64,000 bases of DNA from an uncultured Desulfobacteraceae bacterium (GCA_964591175.1 CAZQAF010000011.1:3208-67207); one strand, 5' to 3'; counted from the first letter of the stretch, positions 23,385 to 36,255 are shown. A program made the numbers and translations. Notes: generated from the sequence alone by a model not told the origin.

Positions 23385-23870
23385 ATGACGTCCGACAATG
23401 ATAGTGAATCCGAAGAACAAACCTTACTGGTGGCCATCGATTTTTCCGATTGTGCCCGTGGCGCGTTGCGTCATGCAAAATCGCTTTTATCCGAAAAACC
23501 CGTTCGAATCGTTGCGCTTCACGTCATCGACCATGATTTTATTGCAGAATGCCTCCGCCATGAGTTGGGTGATGAAGGCCAGATCAAAAAAAAGCTGTTT
23601 ATGGAGGCAAAAGAAAAGCTTCGAGATTATTTGTCTCAAGAAAACTTGGGAAACGATCAAGTCCAAATGATCGTCAGCGAAGGGGTTCCCTACATAGAGA
23701 TCAACAAAAAGGCTGTGGAAAACAATGTGGATATGGTCATTATCGGAAGCTGTGGAAAGACCGGCGACATGGGCAGAATATTTTTCGGAGGCACGACGGA
23801 AAAAGTATTAAGATTCATCACGCGGCCGGTGCTTTGCGTTCCCCCGAAGTCGGACTACCGAATGGATTGA
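23385..23870 (+). CDS. Universal stress protein (UspA family)
   Basis: LVAIDFSD...ALHV...MVIIGSCGKTG...GGTTEKVLRFITRPVLCV. Confidence 0.85.
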   Translation: MTSDNDSESEEQTLLVAIDFSDCARGALRHAKSLLSEKPVRIVALHVIDHDFIAECLRHELGDEGQIKKKLFMEAKEKLRDYLSQENLGNDQVQMIVSEGVPYIEINKKAVENNVDMVIIGSCGKTGDMGRIFFGGTTEKVLRFITRPVLCVPPKSDYRMD

Positions 23871-24048
23871 CGACGAGAATGCACATTTGAATTATCAAAC
23901 TTAAATTACCCTTGATAAAATAAAGTAGATCGTATAAGCATTTAAATACGGTGATGGAGTTCACCGATTAACCGCACGCACGTGCTGATAACTCCTGCCA
24001 TGCTCAATCCTCCGGCGGGAGTCTTGATAAAGAACTACCGCACAAAAC

Positions 24049-24079: not shown

Positions 24080-24218
24080 AGGATCCAACGAACCGGCAAC
24101 TTGCTGTGCCGGCTCATACCGGACATTTTTTGGATTCAACCTGAAAGTTCCCCTTATCATTGTTGTTTTCTTTTATATCCACTTCGACGGTTGCGGGTAT
24201 AAAAAGGTTCCATCGAAC

Positions 24219-25664
24219 ATGCGATTCATAAAGCGCGTAAAAAATAAAGATATCGAAAAACACAACAAAAAAAATGATCTTGGTATCTCTGAACTGGAAC
24301 TTTACAGGCGCCTGGAGGAAAAAGGCTGCCCGGTGTGCAGTGTACTCGAACACCATGACCGGCAATATTTTTCCTGGTTTTCCATTGAAAAGTACCATAT
24401 GCCGGCGTTTCTTGAATCTCTGACGCATGCACTTGGATTCTGTGCGAACCATGGCGCATACCTGGATCGACAGAATCATTGGGCGTCACAAATCACCGCC
24501 GTTCACCGGTATACGGTTTCACGAGTCAATATGCGGATGGCCGCTGGTCTGTCTGAAAGAAAAAATGATTTAAGGCGGATATTTAAAGATCGGACACCCT
24601 GTCCGGTTTGTGCATCCTATGGAGAAACGTCGGAAAGGACCCTTTGGTTTTTTAAAAAGATGATAGAAGAAAAAGAGGGCCTGAATAAATACGGCTATCC
24701 GGGCATACTCTGTTTTCCTCATTTTAAAAGTCTCACCGACAGCGCCTCGCCAAAAGTGTTTGCCAGGCTGCTTTCAAGTCATGAATCGACGATGTTGTCG
24801 ACCACCAAAGAACTGGAATCAATTAGACATCAGGAAATGAAACTTGCGGCGGAATCAGAACAGATCCGGCATGCATTAAACCTGACCGTAGGCCGCGAAC
24901 AGAATCCCGGCAATCCCCTTCTCCTGTCCAGGATTTACAAACTATCTGAAAACCGGGACCCTCTTGCAGATTTTATCTCATCGTTAAAGGAAAATACCGG
25001 CTGCCCGATTTGTCTGAACATTTATCATTCCTTGAGCCAATGGATCTGCTGGCTCGACAAAAATATCATTTCTGCAGACAACTTCGACGCCGTGAGCGAT
25101 GTTTTGCCGACTTGCAATGCACATGTCTGGTCATGCATCCGTCTGGGAAATTCTGCGCTCCAATTTGCCGCCGCATTTGCTGCGTTTCGAGCCGTTCAAG
25201 AAAAAGTCAATAATGCCGCCCGTCACTTGAAACAAGTGAGAAAACCCCGGAAACAAGGGAAAAAGGAAATGCAAAACAATCAAGGCATTATAAAAGTCGA
25301 CCCGAAAAAAACCATCACGGGCCCCATCTATTGCCCCCTATGCAGCCGGATGGATTCGGCCAAAAACCGGGCGCTGAAATTGCTTTTTGCTTTGCTTCAA
25401 GAGCGTCGATACCGTATAGATTTTGAAAATGGCCATGGATTATGCCTCAAACATCTCGCCGACGCACTCGACATGCAGCCTTCAAATGAAATTGCCGGAT
25501 TTTTAATCCGGGTTGAATCCGCCAAGCTGGCGCTTTTAGAATGGGAGCTCGAAGAAGCCATGAGAAAAACGGCCTGGACAGCCCGCCCGGAAATTAAAGG
25601 AAGCGAACAATCAGCCTGGCACCGGGCCCTTGCAAGATTTTCCGGCTTGCCGATATCCGAATAA
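24219..25664 (+). CDS. Uncharacterised protein with four CPxC...C-x2-H modules (DUF6062-like repeats, from memory)
   Basis: Modules CPVC...FCANH, CPVC...CFPHF, CPIC...CNAHVW, CPLC...CLKHL. Start placed at ATG 24219 because the ORF-track start (23982) lies upstream of a terminator. Confidence 0.65.
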   Translation: MRFIKRVKNKDIEKHNKKNDLGISELELYRRLEEKGCPVCSVLEHHDRQYFSWFSIEKYHMPAFLESLTHALGFCANHGAYLDRQNHWASQITAVHRYTVSRVNMRMAAGLSERKNDLRRIFKDRTPCPVCASYGETSERTLWFFKKMIEEKEGLNKYGYPGILCFPHFKSLTDSASPKVFARLLSSHESTMLSTTKELESIRHQEMKLAAESEQIRHALNLTVGREQNPGNPLLLSRIYKLSENRDPLADFISSLKENTGCPICLNIYHSLSQWICWLDKNIISADNFDAVSDVLPTCNAHVWSCIRLGNSALQFAAAFAAFRAVQEKVNNAARHLKQVRKPRKQGKKEMQNNQGIIKVDPKKTITGPIYCPLCSRMDSAKNRALKLLFALLQERRYRIDFENGHGLCLKHLADALDMQPSNEIAGFLIRVESAKLALLEWELEEAMRKTAWTARPEIKGSEQSAWHRALARFSGLPISE

Positions 25665-25681: not shown

Positions 25682-26968
25682 TTGGAAAAACAATCAACGG
25701 CAACAGGGAAATGGCTGAATCGCAATATTTTAGGGTTTGCCCTGACCAGCTTTTTAAGCGATTTTTGTCATGAAATGGCCACAGCGGTGCTGCCTCAATT
25801 CATACAGACGATCGGCGTTTCGGCTGCGGCCTTGGGATTTATCGAAGGGGCTGCGGATGCCATTTCCAGCTTTTCCAAGCTCGGCGTGGGTTATTGGGGA
25901 GATAAAACCGGAAACCGCAAGAACTTGACGGTGATCGGATATGCATTGACCGGATTTTCCAAGGCGGTTTTTGCCTTTGCTTTTGCATGGCCGCTGCTGC
26001 TGGCCGGCAGGATTGTCGGGTGGCTCGGGCGCGGCATAAGGAGCCCCCTCAGGGATGCCATGCTTGCGGACTCGGTAACGGAGAAAAACCGCGCCAAAGC
26101 GTTTGGTTTTCACAGGGCCGGGGATACGGCCGGCGCTGTTGCAGGACCGCTTGTCGCCTTCTTGCTTTTGAGTTTAATCACTTCTCATCCCGAAATCGCT
26201 CAACTTCCGGAACATCTTTTCCCGTTTCTATCAAGCGCGGCAGGTAAAAATTTCAGAGTTATCTTTCTTCTGACACTGGTACCCGGAATACTCTCCGTAG
26301 CCTCCATGGCATTTCTGGTCAAGGAAAAGCGCCGATCACCCAATCACGGGCTCAGGTTTACCGGAGTGATGAGTGCGATGCCGAAGCAGTATCGCATATT
26401 TCTTCTCGCTGTAGGCGTTTTCGGAATGGCCGATTTTGCCCCGACCTTGATGATTCTTCGGGCGACGACGGTCCTGGCCCCTGATATCGGTCTTTTGAAG
26501 GCCATGAAACTCGCCACGCTGCTATATACTTTAAGAAATATTGTTTATGCAGCGGCATCTTATCCCATAGGGGCTTTGAGCCATCGATTTTCAAGAACCC
26601 GTTATCTGGCGGCCGGGTATGCCGTCGCCGTGGTGACATTCGTCGGATTCTTTTTTGCCATATCTTCAGTGCCGTGGTTCGCACTTTGCTTTGCCCTGGC
26701 CGGTGTATTTATTGCCTGGGAGGATACCATGGAAGCGGTGGCGGTCCGAGATTATGTGGATGATTCCATTGCCGGAACAGCCTTTGGTCTTTTGGGCACC
26801 ATCAACGGCATCGGAGATTTTGCATCGAGCATTATCGTCGGTGCATTATGGACTGCCGTAAGCCCGAAATGGGGCTTTGGATATGCCGTTATCGTGGGGT
26901 TGGCCGGCACCATATTAATGGCCAAAACACCTCCGTCAACAACGGTTCAAATTATCAAGGAAAATTGA
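25682..26968 (+). CDS. MFS transporter
   Basis: 428 aa, about 12 hydrophobic segments, MFS loop motif GYWGDKTGNRK. Confidence 0.85.
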   Translation: MEKQSTATGKWLNRNILGFALTSFLSDFCHEMATAVLPQFIQTIGVSAAALGFIEGAADAISSFSKLGVGYWGDKTGNRKNLTVIGYALTGFSKAVFAFAFAWPLLLAGRIVGWLGRGIRSPLRDAMLADSVTEKNRAKAFGFHRAGDTAGAVAGPLVAFLLLSLITSHPEIAQLPEHLFPFLSSAAGKNFRVIFLLTLVPGILSVASMAFLVKEKRRSPNHGLRFTGVMSAMPKQYRIFLLAVGVFGMADFAPTLMILRATTVLAPDIGLLKAMKLATLLYTLRNIVYAAASYPIGALSHRFSRTRYLAAGYAVAVVTFVGFFFAISSVPWFALCFALAGVFIAWEDTMEAVAVRDYVDDSIAGTAFGLLGTINGIGDFASSIIVGALWTAVSPKWGFGYAVIVGLAGTILMAKTPPSTTVQIIKEN

Positions 26969-26992: not shown

Positions 26993-28501
26993 TTATGATG
27001 AGTCCCTGTCAAACCAAATCGCCCGATACAAATCTTCGCCGTAGCTGGTTTCCAATGGCGCACCTTCCACGACTTTAAACGTGCGGGTGCCGTCGGCTCG
27101 CCTTTCGGCCCTGAGGAAAATGGCGTTTTCCATATTTTTTTCGTAAAGCGCATGGGCAAATTCATAAAGGTGCGTCACAAAGAAGACTTTGATACGCTTT
27201 TCCACCAATGCGCGAGTTATCTGCCGCGCAATTTCCGAGCCTTCTCTTTCGTTTGTCGCGGCAAATGATTCATTGAACAACAACAGGGAATTTTCCCTTA
27301 TATTGTCTGCAATAACGCTCATTCTGACAAGTTCTTCATCGAGTTTACCGCTTTCCATAGCAGCGTCCTCTTCCCGTTTATAGTGTGTGAAAAGGCCATC
27401 ACAAATATTGGAACAAAAGGACTCTGCCGGCGCAAACATCCCGCACTGCATCATCAATTGCGCCAAACCGATGCTTCGTAAAAAAGTCGATTTGCCGCCC
27501 TGGTTGGCGCCGGTGATGATGACGAGGTCTTTGTCGTCGGCGTTCACGTCGTTACCGATGATTTTTTGTTTCATGGTCAAGGCCAGGCAGACATCGTATA
27601 AGCCGTGAAAAAAATGTCTGCGTTCATCGAGGGCCGCCGGCCGGGGAAAGGATATCGGCTCGTCCATTTGATCAAGCTGTTCATATAAATTCAAACAACC
27701 GATATAAAAAGCCAGTTCGACCTGCAGCATTTTAAAAAAGTTGTCGATGTGATCAGCGGACTGGCCCAGTGCGTTGGCTGCCAGATTGATCCCTCTCGTC
27801 TTTAATTCCGACAGCGTCCTGGCGCCGGCTTCATCTCGAGGATGGATAGAAAACGTATAGACCGGTGGTTTTTTAGCCAGGACCCGCTTTATCCAACGCT
27901 GTTTTTTTCCCATGGATTTGCGAAGCATATAACCGGTGCCTTCATTGCCTTCTCCCAGTTCAGCACTGATCAAGACGCCCTCGCTAAATTTCAGCTCCCT
28001 TAGATGATCTTGAATATCTGCGAGGTATTCATCTTCCAGTTCTTTGCAAATCATTTCAAAAAACCTCGCAAATCCTTCCGACTCAAATTTATCTGCGTTT
28101 TCATCGGCGATATGCCTAAGTTTTATCAGCAGACCGACAAACATCTGCATCAGCTCTGTCGCATTGGCCAGCACCGCGCCGGGGGAAGAACTGAAAATAC
28201 TATACCAATGTTTTTTTTTGTTTTTCATCGATTCTATGGGAATCTGGTAGATGTCCCTGACTGTGGCTGAATTTTTCAGGCAATCTTTGAGAATCCTCTG
28301 GCGATACCGTATGGTTTCAAGATCGGTATTCATCCCTCCGACAACCGCTTTCTTTGCCACCTCAAATAAAAATGCATCACCAAGGGCCATGGCATTGAAA
28401 AGGGTTTCTAATTCCAGGTCTTGCATCAGTGCTTCTTCGTTGGCCGGCAATTTCTGCTGAAGGTTAAAATCACGGTCTTTATACATCAGAAAAGTTTTCA
28501 T
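26993..28501 (-). CDS. Short MutS-family ABC ATPase (domain III/V only), paralogue B
   Basis: 502 aa. Walker A ITGANQGGKSTFLRSIG, Walker-B-like LLLFNESFAATNEREG, C-terminal THLYEF. ATGA overlap with the upstream paralogue. Confidence 0.8.
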   Translation of the reverse strand: MKTFLMYKDRDFNLQQKLPANEEALMQDLELETLFNAMALGDAFLFEVAKKAVVGGMNTDLETIRYRQRILKDCLKNSATVRDIYQIPIESMKNKKKHWYSIFSSSPGAVLANATELMQMFVGLLIKLRHIADENADKFESEGFARFFEMICKELEDEYLADIQDHLRELKFSEGVLISAELGEGNEGTGYMLRKSMGKKQRWIKRVLAKKPPVYTFSIHPRDEAGARTLSELKTRGINLAANALGQSADHIDNFFKMLQVELAFYIGCLNLYEQLDQMDEPISFPRPAALDERRHFFHGLYDVCLALTMKQKIIGNDVNADDKDLVIITGANQGGKSTFLRSIGLAQLMMQCGMFAPAESFCSNICDGLFTHYKREEDAAMESGKLDEELVRMSVIADNIRENSLLLFNESFAATNEREGSEIARQITRALVEKRIKVFFVTHLYEFAHALYEKNMENAIFLRAERRADGTRTFKVVEGAPLETSYGEDLYRAIWFDRDSS

Positions 28502-30078
28502 GATATCAGTCGCTCCTTTAACCGGCCGTAAGTGACGCCATGCTTTTCGGCAATAGCGATGGCATATGCAAGACCGTCAGCCGGCCGTCTCACAATTTTA
28601 TAGGTTCTCAATGCCGGGTTTTCGGGAACAACGGTACTGACCATGCTCACGGTTTTTTCACTTAGGGATGCCAATTCATCGACAAAGGTTACAAAGACGC
28701 ACAGCAAATCCAGCTGCACGATTTCCTCCATGACCTTTTTCCCTAAAAAAACCGCGTCATTTAAAGTTGTGGAAGTGAAAATTTCATTCATGACGATAAT
28801 GCTGTTTGATGTGGCCCGGTTCAGAATATCGTAAATTCTGACCAGGTCATCCTGGAGCTTGCCTCTGAGGTTGTTGATGCTTTCTTCCTTTTCAAAATGC
28901 GTCAGCAGCTTGTCGAACATAAAGAGTCGCGCCTGTCTGCCAGGGACCGGACAGCCCAGGCCAGCCATATAATGCAACTGTCCGAAGGTGCGTGCGAAAG
29001 TGGTTTTACCGCCCTGGTTTGGTCCGGATATTACAATGATGCGTTCTTTGTCTTTCAGAAAAAAATCATTGCAGACAACGGGCGCTTTCTCTGAAATGAG
29101 CTTATCGGCCAGTGCCAGATCAAAGCCCTCATAATTATGTATATCCTTGCTTGTAACGGCGATTTGGGGGTAACAAAATTTCAATCCTGTTTGTTTGATT
29201 TTTGCGATATACTCCAGATAAGCGATGTAAAATTGTATTTCCCGGTCAAAAACGCCTATGGTTTGGTCCAGACAACTGCGGTTGTTCGCGCAATAATTAT
29301 CAAGGTTTAAAAAGATCTCGGGATATAACTTGGCGACCAAATCGAGTATACCCGCTTCGACATGGCTCATGCCGGAATTCATTGGAAGTTGCGCCCTGTA
29401 ATCTTTCACCGCTCCCTGTTTGAATCTTTCGAAGGTTTTTTCAACGTCTGCGCTGTAATCAATTTCAGATTCATATTTGCGGACCTTGATGCGGTTGCCC
29501 TTTATGATCAAACAATATTTTACAGTGGCCAAATCGGTTTTGAGTTTTTTTGTTTCCGTCATAAGTGATGTAAAGCGGCGGGACGCGGCATAGTTCGTCA
29601 TATATTCGCGAAAAGCCAAAAGACCGTACGATTTTAAATCTGCTAGATCTAAATCGTGCAGCAGGCAAGTCACTGCTTCGCAATAAATCTTTAGGGCCTC
29701 TAAAAACCATCCTTCTTGATGGTATTTGTAGTAGAGCGTATCCGCTAAGGAGAGATATCGACGCATGTTACGCATTTTTTCCGCGAATGATTTTATATGC
29801 TCAAAGAGAACCTCATTTTCAAGATCCTGCATTATTTCTTGGCGGTACCGGATCGCGCCGGCATCCTTTAAGGAAGTATAAAAGAAAGGTTTTAAATGAT
29901 ATTCCTCCTTGCCGGTGGTAATGGCGTCTATAATCTGATCGAGATTTAAATCAGCAAAAAAGACGGGCGCTTCAGGTGTTTCTTTTTTTATGTCGCTTTG
30001 GGCTTTTTCAAATAGAATGCTGTAAAAATCCATGGGATCAATATCCTTGTTGTGGCGAAGTAAAATGCCAAGACCCAT
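28498..30078 (-). CDS. Short MutS-family ABC ATPase (domain III/V only), paralogue A
   Basis: 526 aa. Walker A ISGPNQGGKTTFARTFG, Walker-B-like IIVMNEIFTSTT, THFDEL-like VTFVDEL. The real start may be the internal MDFYSILF (about 30033). Confidence 0.8.
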   Translation of the reverse strand: MGLGILLRHNKDIDPMDFYSILFEKAQSDIKKETPEAPVFFADLNLDQIIDAITTGKEEYHLKPFFYTSLKDAGAIRYRQEIMQDLENEVLFEHIKSFAEKMRNMRRYLSLADTLYYKYHQEGWFLEALKIYCEAVTCLLHDLDLADLKSYGLLAFREYMTNYAASRRFTSLMTETKKLKTDLATVKYCLIIKGNRIKVRKYESEIDYSADVEKTFERFKQGAVKDYRAQLPMNSGMSHVEAGILDLVAKLYPEIFLNLDNYCANNRSCLDQTIGVFDREIQFYIAYLEYIAKIKQTGLKFCYPQIAVTSKDIHNYEGFDLALADKLISEKAPVVCNDFFLKDKERIIVISGPNQGGKTTFARTFGQLHYMAGLGCPVPGRQARLFMFDKLLTHFEKEESINNLRGKLQDDLVRIYDILNRATSNSIIVMNEIFTSTTLNDAVFLGKKVMEEIVQLDLLCVFVTFVDELASLSEKTVSMVSTVVPENPALRTYKIVRRPADGLAYAIAIAEKHGVTYGRLKERLIS

Positions 30079-30130
30079 CCCGCATCACGGCGCAGCCGCA
30101 CGGCATCAGCCTGGCCGCTGCGAAAGGTCA

Positions 30131-30769
30131 TTATTTAATTTCCCGCTTCACAAACTCCTTCATTCCCAGAGGATAACCTCCGGTTACCTCGGCCAGCATG
30201 CGGATGTGTTTTTCAGACCAGTTAAGGCTGTTTTTTCGGGAAACATATCGAAGGAAATCAACGGCATTTTTTATGCCGAGATTTCCGAGTTTGATTAAGT
30301 GAGAAGGCATCAGGCACGCCCGTAGCTGAAACAGATCACGTTCCGGTAAAAAACCCTCTGTGATTGCAATGAAAAGGAGTTTTTTAGAAAAAGCGACCCG
30401 CTGAATAAATGCCAGTCTCTGATGGGAGAGTTCAGAAATATTGTCCAGAACGATGACAGGTTGCCTGTTGTCTTTTAATGTCAGATCGGCAATCAGAGAT
30501 CTTGCCGTTTTATATTTTATATATTTGCGACGATGTTCGGGCGGCCTTTTAGGGGATACTTTCCATAAGATTTCATTACATACCTTTGACGGCGGTTTTG
30601 AGAAATCCGTAAAGACAAACTGCCATCTTTGCTTGGTTATGTCAGATAGATGTTTGGCCAGTTCGGTTTTGCCGATGCCATATTTTCCCGTAATGACGAT
30701 ATGTTTTTTTTTCTTTAACGCATTGATGATTTCCAATATTTCTTTTTTTCGCCCGAAAAAATACATCAT
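30131..30769 (-). CDS. Small AAA/Arch-ATPase-like P-loop protein
   Basis: 212 aa. FFGRKKEILEI then Walker A ITGKYGIGKTELAK; Walker B VIVLDNISE. Confidence 0.7.
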   Translation of the reverse strand: MMYFFGRKKEILEIINALKKKKHIVITGKYGIGKTELAKHLSDITKQRWQFVFTDFSKPPSKVCNEILWKVSPKRPPEHRRKYIKYKTARSLIADLTLKDNRQPVIVLDNISELSHQRLAFIQRVAFSKKLLFIAITEGFLPERDLFQLRACLMPSHLIKLGNLGIKNAVDFLRYVSRKNSLNWSEKHIRMLAEVTGGYPLGMKEFVKREIK

Positions 30770-31030
30770 TTAAAAAAATCTTGATAAGGTGTTGATGTTT
30801 ATAGAAGCTATCTCAAAATTAGGATTTTCGGTCGAGATCAAGGCGAGGCCGAGAAGCAACCCGCAGGCATACTCAAGTATGTCGAGGACTTGATACGAGG
30901 GCTCAACGCCGATATCGGACGAAAAGACTTTTTTGAGATGGCTTCTAAAATCATTTATGCAAAAAGGTATGAACCCTATTATTTTTTTCAAGGCCGGGGG
31001 AAAATTTACCAGTCGTAAAGGATTTCCCAA
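30770..31030 (-). CDS. Hypothetical 86-aa ORF; its stop abuts the ATPase start
   Basis: TTG start without SD, overlapping the antiporter 3' end by 25 nt. Its TAA is immediately followed by the ATG of the ATPase, which itself has no SD (a coupling argument only). Confidence 0.3.
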   Translation of the reverse strand: MGNPLRLVNFPPALKKIIGFIPFCINDFRSHLKKVFSSDIGVEPSYQVLDILEYACGLLLGLALISTENPNFEIASININTLSRFF

Positions 31031-32466
31031 TAATTTTCAAAAGGCGGATCATTCTGACTGTACCGGTATGACATGGTTTTCCCGGTACCGGGACCCGAAG
31101 TGCTGTCTTCGCGCCAGTATTTGACAAAAATGCCGGGAATACGATGTGCGTTCGTCCCATCCATCCATACTTCCTTTTCTTCGATAATCTTCCAGACCGT
31201 CCCGAATTGCTTGCTCCGAACCCGTTCGCCCACACGCGGCAGCCCGTGTTTTGCCCGGAGGTCTTTGAATTTATAAGGGGACTGTTCGCCGTAATCCAAA
31301 ATCTTTTCTCCTGAAATGATAATTCCGATGGCCCCGAGCGGTGCGGTCAAAAGAATGGAGAGGACGGCAACGGCTAAGATCAGATCTCCTGAAGCCACAC
31401 CGGCGGCTAAAGGAACCGCACCGATGGCCGCCTGGACGGTGGCCTTGGGGATGTAGGATATCACGCAGAAAATCCTCTCTTTCTGGTTGAGCGGCGTCCC
31501 GATCAGACAAATGTAGGTTCCGACGCTACGGAACAAAAGCCCCACCAAAATGACGAGGGTCCCGGCAAGCCCGGCATGCCAGGCCACGTTGACATTGACC
31601 TGGGCACCGACCAGAACGAAGAGAAGCAGCTCGGCAAACACCCAGACCTTTTTAAGTTTTTGGGAAATCAGGTGAGCGACGGGTTCGGATTTTTCCAAGA
31701 TAATAAACCCGATGGCCATGACCCCTAAAAGACTGGCAATGGGCACCCATTTTTCACATTCCTTCTCCAGCCAGGTCAAGATGATGGCGACGCCTAAAAC
31801 GATCAGGGTCCGTTTGGGCGGCCGCCAGTCGTATTTGGTGAACAGACGGTATAAAAAATACCCGGGAATGACGCCCACCAAAATCCCCAGCGTAATTGAA
31901 ACCGGTATTTCTCCCAATTTGGCCCAAATATTGACCGTACCGCCGCCATACATGCCTAAAAATATCGAAAAGAGAACGATGACAAAAACATCGTCAATGG
32001 ATGACGCCGCCAGCAGCAGCGTGGGAATGCCCTTTTTGGCGCCCCGGCCCCGATCTATGAAATCAATCATCAACGGCACCACCACCGCCGGCGAAACAGC
32101 GCCTAAGATGGCACCAAGTATGGCGGCTTCCACGTAGCTGATATGCAGCCATCTCGGGGCGACCAGAATGACACCCGCGATTTCAAAAATTGCGGGAATA
32201 CAGCTCATTAAAAGGGCGGCTCGTCCCACGCGGTGCAGGGTGTCTTTATGCAGCTCAAATCCGGCGCGGAGCAAAATGACAATCAAGGCAATTTTTCGAA
32301 AATCAGCGGAAACCCTCATCATATCCGGAGCCATGAGGTTGAAGACATAGGGTCCTGCGAGGATTCCCACGATGAGCATACCCACCAAACCGGGTAATTT
32401 TACCTTCCGAAATACATAATCCGCCAGTAATCCCAAAACGATAATCAAAGAAAGACTTGCCGCCAT
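31006..32466 (-). CDS. Cation:proton antiporter (Na+/H+ exchanger family) with a roughly 90-aa soluble C-terminal extension
   Basis: 486 aa. N-terminus LIIVLGLLADYVFRKVKLPGLVGMLIVGILAGP is typical of the CPA family, with about 12 TM segments. AGGAGG lies before the ATG. Confidence 0.85.
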   Translation of the reverse strand: MAASLSLIIVLGLLADYVFRKVKLPGLVGMLIVGILAGPYVFNLMAPDMMRVSADFRKIALIVILLRAGFELHKDTLHRVGRAALLMSCIPAIFEIAGVILVAPRWLHISYVEAAILGAILGAVSPAVVVPLMIDFIDRGRGAKKGIPTLLLAASSIDDVFVIVLFSIFLGMYGGGTVNIWAKLGEIPVSITLGILVGVIPGYFLYRLFTKYDWRPPKRTLIVLGVAIILTWLEKECEKWVPIASLLGVMAIGFIILEKSEPVAHLISQKLKKVWVFAELLLFVLVGAQVNVNVAWHAGLAGTLVILVGLLFRSVGTYICLIGTPLNQKERIFCVISYIPKATVQAAIGAVPLAAGVASGDLILAVAVLSILLTAPLGAIGIIISGEKILDYGEQSPYKFKDLRAKHGLPRVGERVRSKQFGTVWKIIEEKEVWMDGTNAHRIPGIFVKYWREDSTSGPGTGKTMSYRYSQNDPPFENYWEILYDW

Positions 32467-32557
32467 CTATACCTCCTGTGAAAAATTATTTTGAACACCC
32501 TTCACGATGCATAAAAAAACCTGCTCAGACATACCGGGCAGGATCTTAAAACAGTGC

Positions 32558-32683
32558 AAAAACCCCGCCCGGTCTATCCGGATGGGGCAGAAATCTTATA
32601 ATTATACGACTTCTACCCGATTTTAGGTAGAAGTCATTAGTCTCTTAACGCTTGGTGACGATTCAGGCAGACCTCATTGCCTT
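32558..32683 (-). promoter_or_regulatory. Conserved structured 5' leader (copy 1) ending in an intrinsic terminator; candidate riboswitch/attenuator
   Basis: RNA sense: AAGGCAAUGAGGUCUGCCUGAA, then hairpin GACUUCUACC/GGUAGAAGUC, then CCCCAUCCGG-AUAGA-CCGGGCGGGG-UUUUU. A near-identical motif lies at 34618-34786. Confidence 0.5.
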
Positions 32684-32805
32684 ATATTTTTTTCAAGCCT
32701 TTAAATACGTTCTATTATTTAATGTCAAGCAAATTTCATATTCATCGCATGCCGATGGGCCTTAAACATTTTTTTAAACCATTGAGATTAACCCGGGGCT
32801 CCAGA

Positions 32806-34563
32806 TTACATGGCCGAAACATCTTTTTGAAAAGAATAAAGCTTATTGCGAATTTCTTCAACATTCGATAACCGGTCTGAAAGCTTTGACAGGGTCTGGG
32901 AAACCTCTTTTTCACTCTGATCTTTGAGCGCCATCGCCCGGTTCAAAGCTTCCCTGATGGTGGAAACGGTCAGGCCGATTTTTTCATTCAGTGCTTTTTT
33001 AAAGTTTCTGCTGGTGTCTTCGACCCGCCGAATCAGATCGTATCTTACCCGGCCGCAATGCCTTTCAAATCGACCGGAAATAGTATCTTTCATCCGCTTT
33101 AATATAATCCCCTTGGCCATGAATTTCGGCAGGGCAAAACGGATCGACAGCCCGATAAGCTCTATCGCGCCCGGATCGTCTTTTAACAAAAAATAGAACT
33201 CACCTTTTTTGGATAGTTTTTCAACAGTGGTAAACGGTTTGAGTTCCACCCGGAACAGATCAGACGTCATCTTCACGATGTTTTCAATGATATCATTGGT
33301 GCGTTTTGCAATATCCAGGTAGATTTGCTCAAGGATCCCGGCGATCTTTTCCGCTTCTTTTTGCCTGACCCTGTTAAATGTGACCATGATTTCGTTAAAA
33401 ACAAAATCTTCCATTTCCTTTTCAAGTTCATGACTGCTGATCTGTCGGGCGGTTGTTTCGGCAAATTTTTCTTCCATTTTTTTTAAAAGAACCGGCAGAT
33501 CTTTTCGGACAAGACCCGCCAGATCATCATCCAGCTTTTGCTGGAGCTTTCTCATATGTCCTTCTAAAATGAAATTTTGGCGATCCCGGTCCTTTTGAGC
33601 GGTATCGGCATATTCTTCAAAGGTTGCGATTTTCGCTTTTAACTCCTCAACCGATAATCGGGCTGCTTCCTGCTCTATCTTGTAAGCCATGGTTTCATCG
33701 GCGGTATATTTTAAAAGAGATCCGATAACCGAACGAAGAAAGGTTTTTCCCTTTTCATGGTGTAAAAAATCTTTGAGATCTTTTTCAAAAGCCAACATAT
33801 TAGACCGGTTTAATTTGTCCGTATCGCCCTTTAGTTTTCCTAACAGCGCGAATTTCGCCGAAACCGGATAGAGATTGACGGATTGCCCAAGATCTTCTCG
33901 TATAAGATTGGTGGTGAATTCCATGGATTCGCTTAGATCCGATGCTTCCACCAAGTCGGTTTTGTTTAATACAAAAATAAATTTGTCGGCATGCTCCCGG
34001 ACTTCCTTTAAAAATCGATGCTCGGCTTCTCCCAGCGGCGGGTCCGGCGTAACGATAAAGACGCCGGCATCGACGTAGGGCAGATACGCATAGGCCACAT
34101 CCGTATTATGTTTAAACACCGAACCCACTCCGGGGGTATCGATGATCCGCACCCCATCCTTCAAATAATCCGAGGGATAAAAAATCTCCACCTCTTTGAC
34201 ATGCAGTTTGTTTTTAGGGTTTTGTTTTTCAGTCACAAATTTCGGAATATCCGGAAGGTGAATCTCCTCTTCTTTCTCATCCAAATAACGCACAATCGCC
34301 CTGCTTGTTTGTCCGTAACGCAAAATGGTGACAATGGAAGTTAAGGGAACAATGGATGTCGGAAGGATTTCGGCGCCGATCAACGCATTGATAAACGTAG
34401 ACTTTCCGCGTTTGAACTGCCCCATTACCACCAGGTTGAATTGCTCCAACGCCAGTTTTTCGGTTATCTCGCCAAGTCTTTTATCCCTATTGCTATTCAT
34501 CTTTGAGAGATCGTCGACAACACCTAATATCCGATCCTTCATTACAGCAAATCGAGTTTCCAT
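32806..34563 (-). CDS. Bacterial dynamin-like GTPase
   Basis: G1 GQFKRGKST, G3 DTPG, G4 NKTD, and a long coiled-coil/stalk C-terminal half. AGGAGG lies before the ATG. Confidence 0.85.
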   Translation of the reverse strand: METRFAVMKDRILGVVDDLSKMNSNRDKRLGEITEKLALEQFNLVVMGQFKRGKSTFINALIGAEILPTSIVPLTSIVTILRYGQTSRAIVRYLDEKEEEIHLPDIPKFVTEKQNPKNKLHVKEVEIFYPSDYLKDGVRIIDTPGVGSVFKHNTDVAYAYLPYVDAGVFIVTPDPPLGEAEHRFLKEVREHADKFIFVLNKTDLVEASDLSESMEFTTNLIREDLGQSVNLYPVSAKFALLGKLKGDTDKLNRSNMLAFEKDLKDFLHHEKGKTFLRSVIGSLLKYTADETMAYKIEQEAARLSVEELKAKIATFEEYADTAQKDRDRQNFILEGHMRKLQQKLDDDLAGLVRKDLPVLLKKMEEKFAETTARQISSHELEKEMEDFVFNEIMVTFNRVRQKEAEKIAGILEQIYLDIAKRTNDIIENIVKMTSDLFRVELKPFTTVEKLSKKGEFYFLLKDDPGAIELIGLSIRFALPKFMAKGIILKRMKDTISGRFERHCGRVRYDLIRRVEDTSRNFKKALNEKIGLTVSTIREALNRAMALKDQSEKEVSQTLSKLSDRLSNVEEIRNKLYSFQKDVSAM

Positions 34564-34617: not shown

Positions 34618-34786
34618 AAAAAAAAACCCTGCACGGTTCGAATCCGGGCAGGGTTATACTCCTTTGTATCTGCAGCGAAGGGCAAAGCAGATATTGGTGA
34701 ATAACTCCTACCCGTTATAAGTAGAAGTCATCATTTCTATCCCCTTTACGCAAGATACGAAAAGTTCAGGCAGACTTCATTACCTT
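34618..34786 (-). promoter_or_regulatory. Conserved structured 5' leader (copy 2) ending in a strong intrinsic terminator
   Basis: RNA sense: AAGGUAAUGAAGUCUGCCUGAA, then GACUUCUAC/GUAGGAGUU, then CCCUGCCCGG-AUUCGAA-CCGUGCAGGG-U9. Confidence 0.5.
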
Positions 34787-34803
34787 TCGCAATATTCGTT
34801 TAG

Positions 34804-34875: not shown

Positions 34876-36255
34876 CTAAATATTTAGTATGATCTTGGCC
34901 GTTATAAAGAAAATAAGCAAACCGGTGATGTCGACAACGGTCGTCAACGCCGGGCTTGCGATTACGGCAGGATCGAGTTTCAATCTTGCGGCGAACAAAG
35001 GAAGTAACGCACCGATGACGGTTGCGGTAATCACTTGTAATGTCAGGGCGACCGAAACAGCGATGCCGATCGTGCCGAGTGAAAAACCCGCCGGCACGGA
35101 AGATCCTGCGCCGAAAAATAGAACGCGTCCATATGCAATAGCCCCGAGCAATAGGCCGAGAAGCAGTCCGATTTGAGCCTCTTTCAAGAGGATTCGCACG
35201 ATGTCTTTATGGGTAATTTCTTCAAGGGCCAGTGCCCGAACGACCAAGGTCGCCGATTGACTTCCGGTGTTTCCTCCGGTATCCGCCAGCATGGGCATAA
35301 ACGTGACCAATATGGCAAATTGCAGCAGCAGCCCTTCGAATTTCTGGACGATAGCACCGGATATAAATCCGACAAAAGCAAGAACTACGATCCACAAGAC
35401 CCTGTTTTTGAAATGTTTTATGACCGGTGTCTTCATATAGGCGGCTGCTTCGTGGCGACCGGAGATCGCCATGAACTTTTCCATATCTTCTGTTTGTTCC
35501 TGGGTGATAATATCGATGGCATCATCGTGCGTGATAATGCCGACAAGCGCTTCATTGCCGTTAATAATCGGCAAGGCGATAAGATCGTATTTCTGAATTT
35601 TACGGGCTGCGTCTTCCTGGTCATCTTCAACGCGGGCGCAAATCACATCCCGGTGCATGATCTCCCCGATCCGGGACTCTTTCCGGGCAATAATCAAATC
35701 TTTTAATGATATAAAACCGATCAATTTACGGTGCCTATCCACCACATAAGCATAATAGATGGTTTCTCGGTCCGGCGCGATTTCCCTGAGTCGATCGATG
35801 GCTTGCGATGCCGTCAATTCCGGAGATAGGGTCGCATAATCCGAGGTCATCACCGCACCGGCCGTGCCTTCCTTGTAAGCGGACAAACGGCGTATGTCTT
35901 CCCGCTCGGCTTGAGCCATGGCGGGCAAAACTTCTTCACGTCTGTCTTCGGGCAGAAGTTTGAACACGTCCGCGCGATCATCCGGAGGCATATCGGCAAG
36001 CAGCCGGACGATGTCTCCCCGGCCTAATGCGCCGATGATATCCACTTGAAGCTCATCATTCAGATGACTGAAGATATCAGAGCGGGTCTGAAAGCCGGCA
36101 TGCCGGAGTACATCCCATGCTTCACCGGTGGTCAGTGAGGAGATCATCTCAGCCACCACCACAGGGTGGCTCGATTCGCAGAAAGTTTTTAGGAATTTGG
36201 TGTTTCCGGACGTAATCAAATTACGGAGGTCGGAAACAACGAGTGGGGTTTTCAT
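34876..36255 (-). CDS. mgtE: Magnesium transporter MgtE
   Basis: 459 aa with an MgtE N-domain, a CBS pair, and a C-terminal TM domain carrying the DTGGNTGSQSAT motif. Confidence 0.92.
   Translation of the reverse strand: MKTPLVVSDLRNLITSGNTKFLKTFCESSHPVVVAEMISSLTTGEAWDVLRHAGFQTRSDIFSHLNDELQVDIIGALGRGDIVRLLADMPPDDRADVFKLLPEDRREEVLPAMAQAEREDIRRLSAYKEGTAGAVMTSDYATLSPELTASQAIDRLREIAPDRETIYYAYVVDRHRKLIGFISLKDLIIARKESRIGEIMHRDVICARVEDDQEDAARKIQKYDLIALPIINGNEALVGIITHDDAIDIITQEQTEDMEKFMAISGRHEAAAYMKTPVIKHFKNRVLWIVVLAFVGFISGAIVQKFEGLLLQFAILVTFMPMLADTGGNTGSQSATLVVRALALEEITHKDIVRILLKEAQIGLLLGLLLGAIAYGRVLFFGAGSSVPAGFSLGTIGIAVSVALTLQVITATVIGALLPLFAARLKLDPAVIASPALTTVVDITGLLIFFITAKIILNI

Follow-up and report, generated by a model that had tools for sequence, protein, structure and literature searches.

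A fluoride riboswitch with a proposed relay-type expression platform upstream of a Na+/H+ antiporter operon in an uncultured Desulfobacteraceae bacterium

Members of the fluoride riboswitch family lie in the 5' leaders of fluoride-response genes and act as ON switches, and the leader described here appears to share both the position and the logic. In the aptamer, fluoride is bridged by three Mg2+ ions to backbone phosphates and locks the pseudoknot and the linchpin pair (PMC8752731). The roles of the A40-U48 linchpin, a reverse-Hoogsteen pair, of U41 and G42 and of the pocket nucleotides have been described (PMC8752731, PMC11077080). The aptamers of Bacillus cereus crcB and Thermotoga petrophila (PDB 4ENC) have a helix P1 with an 8-nt loop, a helix P3 and a 6-bp pseudoknot, together with the A-U linchpin and the AUG, GAUGAC and CUAC nucleotides, all of which recur in our leader. 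As to the genes controlled, Na+/H+ antiporters come second after exporters among fluoride-riboswitch-associated genes, according to the part of PMC11139923 that cites Baker et al. 2012, and the first report of the crcB motif already named mutS and K+/Cl- transport genes (PMC2864571).

Two other groups of leaders invite comparison. The DUF1646 (Na+) and nhaA-I (Li+) motifs are also ion-responsive leaders before cation/proton antiporters; they have another fold and other conserved nucleotides, and they sense cations, whereas our leader would sense F- via Mg2+. The trp-leader (1:2 / 2:3 / 3:4), SAM-I and T-box anti-antiterminator leaders resemble it in mechanism, not by homology, in that mutually exclusive neighbouring helices relay an upstream decision. 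There, a ribosome, a tRNA or a P1 helix takes hold of the first segment, and here the capturing element would be a ligand-locked pseudoknot. The parity of the proposed relay gives an ON switch, as expected for the fluoride riboswitch class.

The locus lies in a 64-kb stretch of DNA, all of which was analysed and which is called the window below. When the whole window was scanned against Rfam 15 (cmscan, gathering thresholds), three matches came back, all of them to RF01734, the fluoride riboswitch or crcB motif, whose gathering score is 34. Copy 1 has E = 5.5e-8 in the whole-window scan and 3.4e-10 when the leader alone is searched, with a score only 7 bits above the gathering threshold. A permissive scan (E ≤ 10) of 32400-32800 on both strands found no significant family besides RF01734, the remaining matches having E values of at least 0.66 and lying far under the threshold of each family. 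The sequence-only reading of this leader had inferred an ion- or metabolite-sensing riboswitch, had been unable to name its class, and had recommended such an Rfam scan with a hint to the Na+ and Li+ classes. The inference is supported by the RF01734 match, the class being a known one and the ligand an ion, fluoride. The hint is not: the Na+ (DUF1646) and Li+ (nhaA-I) riboswitches, both of which we take to be included in Rfam 15, find no support, because neither family has a match in 32400-32800 at E ≤ 10. We regard it as virtually certain that the leader element is a fluoride riboswitch, and neither a Na+/Li+ class nor a new one. This class is already known, as are the ligand it binds, the structure it adopts and its association with antiporter and mutS-like genes, and a standard Rfam scan detects copy 1. 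All the defining sequence and structure features of the family are present in copy 1, except that its expression platform appears to be indirect. The features are collected in Table 1.

Table 1. Coordinates of the riboswitches, their parts and the neighbouring genes in the window, with related stand-alone genes in three other loci
Feature	Coordinates	Strand	Details
Fluoride riboswitch aptamer, copy 1	32621-32690	-	RF01734, 41.2 bits, model positions 1-64, full-length
P1 helix	32666-32681	-	GGCA (32678-32681) / UGCC (32666-32669), 4 bp
P1 loop	32670-32677	-	8 nt, AUGAGGUC; contains conserved AUG (32675-32677)
Pseudoknot 5' strand	32670-32675	-	GAGGUC, inside P1 loop; partner GACUUC (32630-32635)
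P3 helix	32640-32659	-	GUCA (32656-32659) / AGAC (32640-32643), 12-nt loop; cmscan alignment
Aptamer 3' tail	32627-32637	-	AUGACUUCUAC; carries pseudoknot 3' strand GACUUC (32630-32635)
Hairpin H2	32606-32637	-	AUGACUUCUACCU / GGGUAGAAGUCGU, -18.9 kcal/mol; competes with pseudoknot; proposed anti-antiterminator
Proposed antiterminator	32585-32618	-	GGGUAGAAGUC (32608-32618) with GAUUUCUGCCC (32585-32595)
Intrinsic terminator T1	32558-32587	-	CCCCAUCCGG-AUAGA-CCGGGCGGGG (32563-32587) and U5 (32558-32562)
Second terminator-like hairpin T2	32513-32542	-	CCUGCCCGG..CUGAGCAGG (32520-32542) and U7 (32513-32519)
Putative sigma-70-type promoter	32700-32728	-	TTGACA (32723-32728), 17-nt spacer, TTTAAA (32700-32705)
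Shine-Dalgarno and start codon, antiporter gene	32464-32477	-	AGGAGG (32472-32477), ATG (32464-32466)
Na_H_Exchanger protein	31006-32466	-	486 aa
Small ORF	30770-30991	-	73 aa
AAA/STAND-like ATPase	30131-30769	-	212 aa
MutS domain V-only protein	28498-30078	-	526 aa
MutS domain V-only protein	26993-28501	-	502 aa
Fluoride riboswitch, copy 2	34715-34793	-	RF01734, 35.3 bits; upstream of dynamin-like GTPase gene
Dynamin-like GTPase (Dynamin_N)	32806-34563	-	585 aa
Fluoride riboswitch, copy 3	23941-24004	+	RF01734, 54.5 bits; upstream of DUF6062 and MFS genes
DUF6062 protein and MFS transporter genes	about 24210-25664 and 25682-26968		Pfam
Universal stress protein gene	23385-23870	+	flanks three riboswitch units
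MgtE Mg2+ transporter gene	34876-36255	-	flanks three riboswitch units
Stand-alone C-terminal-domain protein	L013 9026-9313, L009 6170-6427, L010 4514-4756

The antiporter protein is encoded identically on sediment-metagenome contigs and on a Desulfobacterales MAG. A scan for its homologues, with one genome per species, gave 30 loci at 97-55% identity (cited below by their L numbers) from Desulfobacterales, Desulfatirhabdium, Desulfomonilaceae, Syntrophales, Scalinduaceae, Planctomycetota and Gudongella. RF01734 stands directly upstream of the homologue at gathering level in 14 of the 30, and two further loci have an upstream match of about 31 bits, making 16 of 30, a count that includes among the 30 three loci (L017, L024, L035) with less than 250 nt of upstream sequence. 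In Planctomycetota loci among these, the riboswitch is separated from the antiporter homologue by crcB, a fluoride-channel gene. Only aptamer remnants precede the homologue in L013, L029, L031 and L036. There, in the 330 nt before the gene, the 3' tail, H2 and the terminators are recognisable, and P1 and the pseudoknot 5' half have been replaced or degraded; the sequences of these leaders suggest riboswitch decay or rearrangement.

Read on the minus strand, the leader of copy 1 contains, in this order, a 22-nt block, AAGGCAAUGAGGUCUGCCUGAA (32683-32662), then UAAUGACUUCUACC-UAAAAUC-GGGUAGAAGUC, and then CCCCAUCCGG-AUAGA-CCGGGCGGGG-UUUUU, whose last nucleotide is 32558. These blocks, the terminator, the ribosome-binding site and the ATG at 32466 had been recognised in the sequence-only reading, and all of them are there. 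Its distances were less exact: the first spacer, given as 24 nt, has 22 and is in fact helix P3, and the second, given as about 30 nt, has 20. It had also counted two copies of the motif and a single terminator before the ATG; both copies and T1 are present, but the window holds a third copy, on the plus strand, and the second terminator-like hairpin, T2, had been overlooked. The window contains the 22-nt block at exactly two places (32662-32683 and 34765-34786), and none is expected from 100 dinucleotide shuffles even when 2 mismatches are allowed; ATGACTTCTAC likewise occurs exactly twice, against 0.03 expected. The folding energy of the 135-nt leader, -44.6 kcal/mol, is well below that of dinucleotide shuffles (z = -4.5). 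A promoter-like TTGACA-17-TTTAAA site, read by eye at a place where a simple promoter scan made no call, would put the transcription start some 10 nt ahead of P1, and its -35 region is also conserved in L007, L008 and L028.

The anatomy of the aptamer follows the family closely. The pairing of the loop GAGGUC with GACUUC, six base pairs of which five are Watson-Crick and one is G.U, had been noted earlier as a possibility and is the family's defining pseudoknot. Of the second hairpin described at that time, only the 5' arm belongs to the aptamer, as its 3' tail; taken whole, this hairpin is H2, the structure that competes in the ligand-free state. Copy 1 differs from the family examples in its short and weak P3, which has 3 standard pairs and one A.A, flagged by cmscan, under a 12-nt loop; the counterparts at the same place in relatives are GUCCC/GGGAC (L011) and GCC/GGC (L015). 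We take the AUG of the P1 loop to be A6-U7-G8 of the crystallised T. petrophila aptamer. In the 3' tail, the equivalents are presumably A32637 for linchpin A40, U32629 for U48, U32636 for U41 and G32635 for G42. The loop AUG and these four nucleotides are all present, and in the alignment of relatives their columns are invariant or at least 90% conserved. We also assume that the T. petrophila loop GAGG with the tail CCUCUAC is the same pseudoknot variant type as GAGGUC / GACUUCUAC, the crystallised aptamer thus presumably carrying the A-U variant of the pseudoknot pair discussed next.

Alignment of 33 RF01734 hits (alignment A1, made with MAFFT), 31 of them distinct, shows that the helices covary. 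In the 31 distinct sequences, 99.7% of the cells of P1 and the pseudoknot hold standard pairs, and only 38-61% are paired when the partner strand is slid by 1-3 columns as a control. P1 alone is paired in 100% of cases, with double compensatory changes in two of its four pairs, and the pseudoknot helix alone in 99.5%; taken together, 4 of the 10 pairs have changed on both sides. Covariation was counted for P1 and the pseudoknot, and P3 was left out because MAFFT misaligned it, shifting its 5' strand between subgroups. At the pseudoknot column pair 17-69, 18 sequences carry G-C and 13 carry A-U, and it is this compensated pair at which copy 1 deviates from the consensus, with A for G in the loop and U for C in the tail. 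The two copy-to-copy changes described in the sequence-only reading, a P1 C-G pair that becomes U.G and a loop G to A that turns a pseudoknot G.U into A-U, are both correct.

It is in the expression platform that this locus departs from the well-known examples. In B. cereus, T. petrophila and L016 the hairpin that invades the pseudoknot is the terminator; in copy 1 it is not, since H2 is followed on its 3' side by the tail GUAUAAUUA, without a U-tract. We surveyed 35 RF01734 hits from the window and L007-L036. All except the one in L008 form a hairpin overlapping the pseudoknot strand, and in 33 of these 34 riboswitches sampled from the lineage no U-tract follows it directly, the sole exception being L016 (Desulfatirhabdium). 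In most of the others at least five consecutive U's follow after a further 28-101 nt, and eight lack such a run in the 170 nt examined. By their sequences, an indirect expression platform seems to be the norm in this lineage.

Strong terminators between a promoter and its gene must be conditional, and a relay from the aptamer to T1 was therefore looked for. In copy 1, GGGUAGAAGUC is complementary to GAUUUCUGCCC, a segment that overlaps the first C's of the 5' arm of T1. The duplex has -18.0 kcal/mol, compared with -8.8 ± 2.0 in shuffles (z = -4.7, p = 0.003). Copy 2 possesses counterparts of all three, namely an H2, an antiterminator (GGGUAGG / CCUGCCC) and, at 34618-34653, a terminator with U9, and the relay segments of copy 3 are ACUCCUGCC / GGCGGGAGU / ACUCCCGCC. 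The complementarity has z = -4.7, -3.6 and -5.1 in copies 1, 2 and 3 and always overlaps the terminator foot; it is not significant in L008, L011, L012 and L027. One pair of the antiterminator differs between the window (A-U) and L015 (G-C), and the changed nucleotide still pairs with the fixed aptamer strand, as G.U.

The relay was tested with equilibrium folding models, which cannot settle a co-transcriptional mechanism, and the bound state was mimicked by blocking the pseudoknot 3' strand from pairing. Unconstrained, the leader folds into H2 and T1; with the strand blocked, it folds into the antiterminator and a broken T1, and the probability of the outer four pairs of T1 falls from 1.00 to 0.20. 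When a 10-nt block was slid along copy 2, only blocks that overlapped the pseudoknot 3' strand lowered the terminator probability. Equilibrium folding shows the terminator loss for copies 1 and 2, L007, L028 and L009, and none in copy 3, L008, L010, L011, L012, L015 and L027. The overlap of the expression platform with the pseudoknot 3' strand is present, and support for the relay is found in the window and not in all relatives.

T2, which lies between T1 and the ribosome-binding site, is a homologue of the one terminator that copy 2 has. For the window, the equilibrium models predict that T2 does not form, whichever of the two states is assumed. The T1 3' arm and U-tract are complementary to the 5' side of T2, forming a 14-bp duplex of -24.1 kcal/mol (z = -4.1); release of T1 could therefore also prevent T2. 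This complementarity is strong in the window and its closest relatives. At equilibrium the helix (32513-32587, minus strand) outcompetes T1 and T2 together. It may be a second relay step, or it may be a by-product of duplication from the copy-2 terminator.

Tug-of-war antitermination (bioRxiv 10.64898/2026.06.17.733018) was considered for this leader and rejected because the aptamer is not adjacent to T1, lying some 40 nt upstream of it.

We propose that copy 1 works as follows. With fluoride, the pseudoknot 3' strand GACUUCUAC would stay locked. GGGUAGAAGUC, which therefore cannot form H2, would pair with GAUUUCUGCCC instead; this pairing would hide the foot of T1, and RNA polymerase would read through. 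The freed 3' arm of T1 could then pair with the 5' side of T2. Without fluoride, H2 and T1 would form and transcription would stop at the U5 tract near 32558, with T2 as a backup terminator. In B. cereus and T. petrophila the invading hairpin acts directly, whereas in copy 1 the signal apparently reaches one or two terminators, 45-90 nt farther downstream, by way of an antiterminator. Induction of the antiporter is thought to offset the acidification and the loss of proton-motive force that result from HF/F- accumulation. That the element is a fluoride riboswitch serving as a transcriptional ON switch for the Na+/H+ (CPA-type) antiporter operon, with such a relay, is in our judgement highly probable. 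The relay in exactly this form, as the folding models depict it, we hold to be probable with moderate confidence.

Three other readings have to be weighed. Copy 1 could be a textbook fluoride riboswitch in which H2 itself is the regulated terminator or pause, T1 and T2 being unrelated or leaky. This is how the well-studied examples and L016 are built, with a U-tract directly after the overlapping hairpin, and the equilibrium model, which shows no terminator loss in several relatives, would agree with it. Against this, H2 runs into GUAUAAUUA, as U-tract-less as the sequence after the hairpin in 33 of the 34 riboswitches of the lineage, and unconditional strong terminators before the gene would silence the operon. 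Moreover, the 3' arm of H2 is complementary to the terminator foot, significantly so in all three leaders of the window. We consider direct termination by H2 improbable, and the relay remains the preferred account of how T1 is controlled.

Very improbable, too, is that copy 1 is a decaying or non-functional element whose leader terminators now either act constitutively or are circumvented by transcription that runs on from the dynamin-like gene, after which no obvious terminator is seen. The score near threshold and the weak P3 would fit decay, as would the antiporter leaders of L013, L029, L031 and L036, with their lost or degraded aptamer 5' half; but the pocket, linchpin and pseudoknot positions of copy 1 are all intact, the substitutions peculiar to the window have been compensated (G-C to A-U), and the element and its promoter have been kept in L007, L028, L011 and L015. 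As for the ligand, the antiporter downstream exchanges cations and protons, and in the pseudoknot A-U and G.U take the place of the consensus G-C and A-U, so that one might think of a crcB-fold variant, or of another ion riboswitch (Na+ DUF1646, Li+ nhaA-I), that senses something other than fluoride. To this we give almost no credence. No other Rfam family is found at E ≤ 10, and the A-U variant of the pseudoknot is common in the family (13 of the 31 sequences here). The ligand contacts backbone phosphates via Mg2+, the conserved nucleotides around it are unchanged, and homologous antiporters occur in crcB operons behind high-scoring fluoride aptamers.

The aptamer lies about 155 nt upstream of the Na_H_Exchanger gene, the first of a series on the minus strand (26993-32466) identified through Pfam, NCBIfam and the gene calls of identical contigs. 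Between the genes of this series no strong terminator turned up, and we infer that the antiporter, ATPase and MutS-like genes are co-transcribed. The small ORF, the ATPase gene and the two MutS_V-only genes (26993-30991, minus strand) stand together in the window and L007 only; in L008, L011 and L028, whose antiporters are 92-95% identical, a convergent MFS gene directly follows the antiporter. The ATPase/MutS-like cassette therefore looks, from this distribution, like a recent insertion into the riboswitch-controlled unit. Searched as a defence system with PADLOC and NCBIfam, the cassette gave only weak matches at the P-loop level.

The antiporter ends in a C-terminal domain of about 85 aa (residues ~402-483; 31006-31260) without a Pfam match. 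The same domain occurs in relatives as a stand-alone protein of 95 aa with 36-40% identity, and each of the stand-alone copies in Table 1 lies 400-500 nt downstream of another fluoride riboswitch match.

The other two copies of the riboswitch precede genes of other families. Behind copy 2 stands the dynamin-like GTPase gene. In L009, L012, L013, L029, L031 and L036 a dynamin-like homologue likewise follows a high-scoring RF01734 match; these homologues are 27-29% identical, and the association therefore holds across deep divergence. A literature search found no paper linking dynamin and fluoride riboswitches. Copy 3 stands before the DUF6062 and MFS genes, a unit that is also found in L007, L011 and L028; the same literature search found no mention of DUF6062. 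The three riboswitch units are flanked by the universal stress protein gene and the MgtE gene, neither of which has a riboswitch match before it. Universal stress protein is a known partner in fluoride operons, and fluoride chelates Mg2+. A tblastn search of the 64-kb window with two CrcB queries revealed no crcB homologue.

It is tempting to see in the Desulfobacterales lineage an undescribed 'domino' platform, made of a U-tract-less anti-antiterminator, an antiterminator and one or two serial terminators. With it might go a regulon that takes in families not yet linked to fluoride: the dynamin-like GTPase, DUF6062, the small domain that is either fused to the antiporter or separate, and the AAA plus double MutS-like cassette. 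We offer this combined view tentatively and think it rather unlikely to hold as a whole. The literature titles and abstracts that we searched, a set that lies apart from the key primary papers, contained no relay-type fluoride expression platform.

A relay platform of this kind may help to explain those natural fluoride riboswitches that have no predicted terminator beside the aptamer. For annotation, the value of the finding is that an 11-kb stretch of an uncultured sediment bacterium can be read as a fluoride-response island with three sensors. The riboswitch link also gives a testable functional hint for the dynamin-like GTPase, for DUF6062 and for the MutS-like pair.
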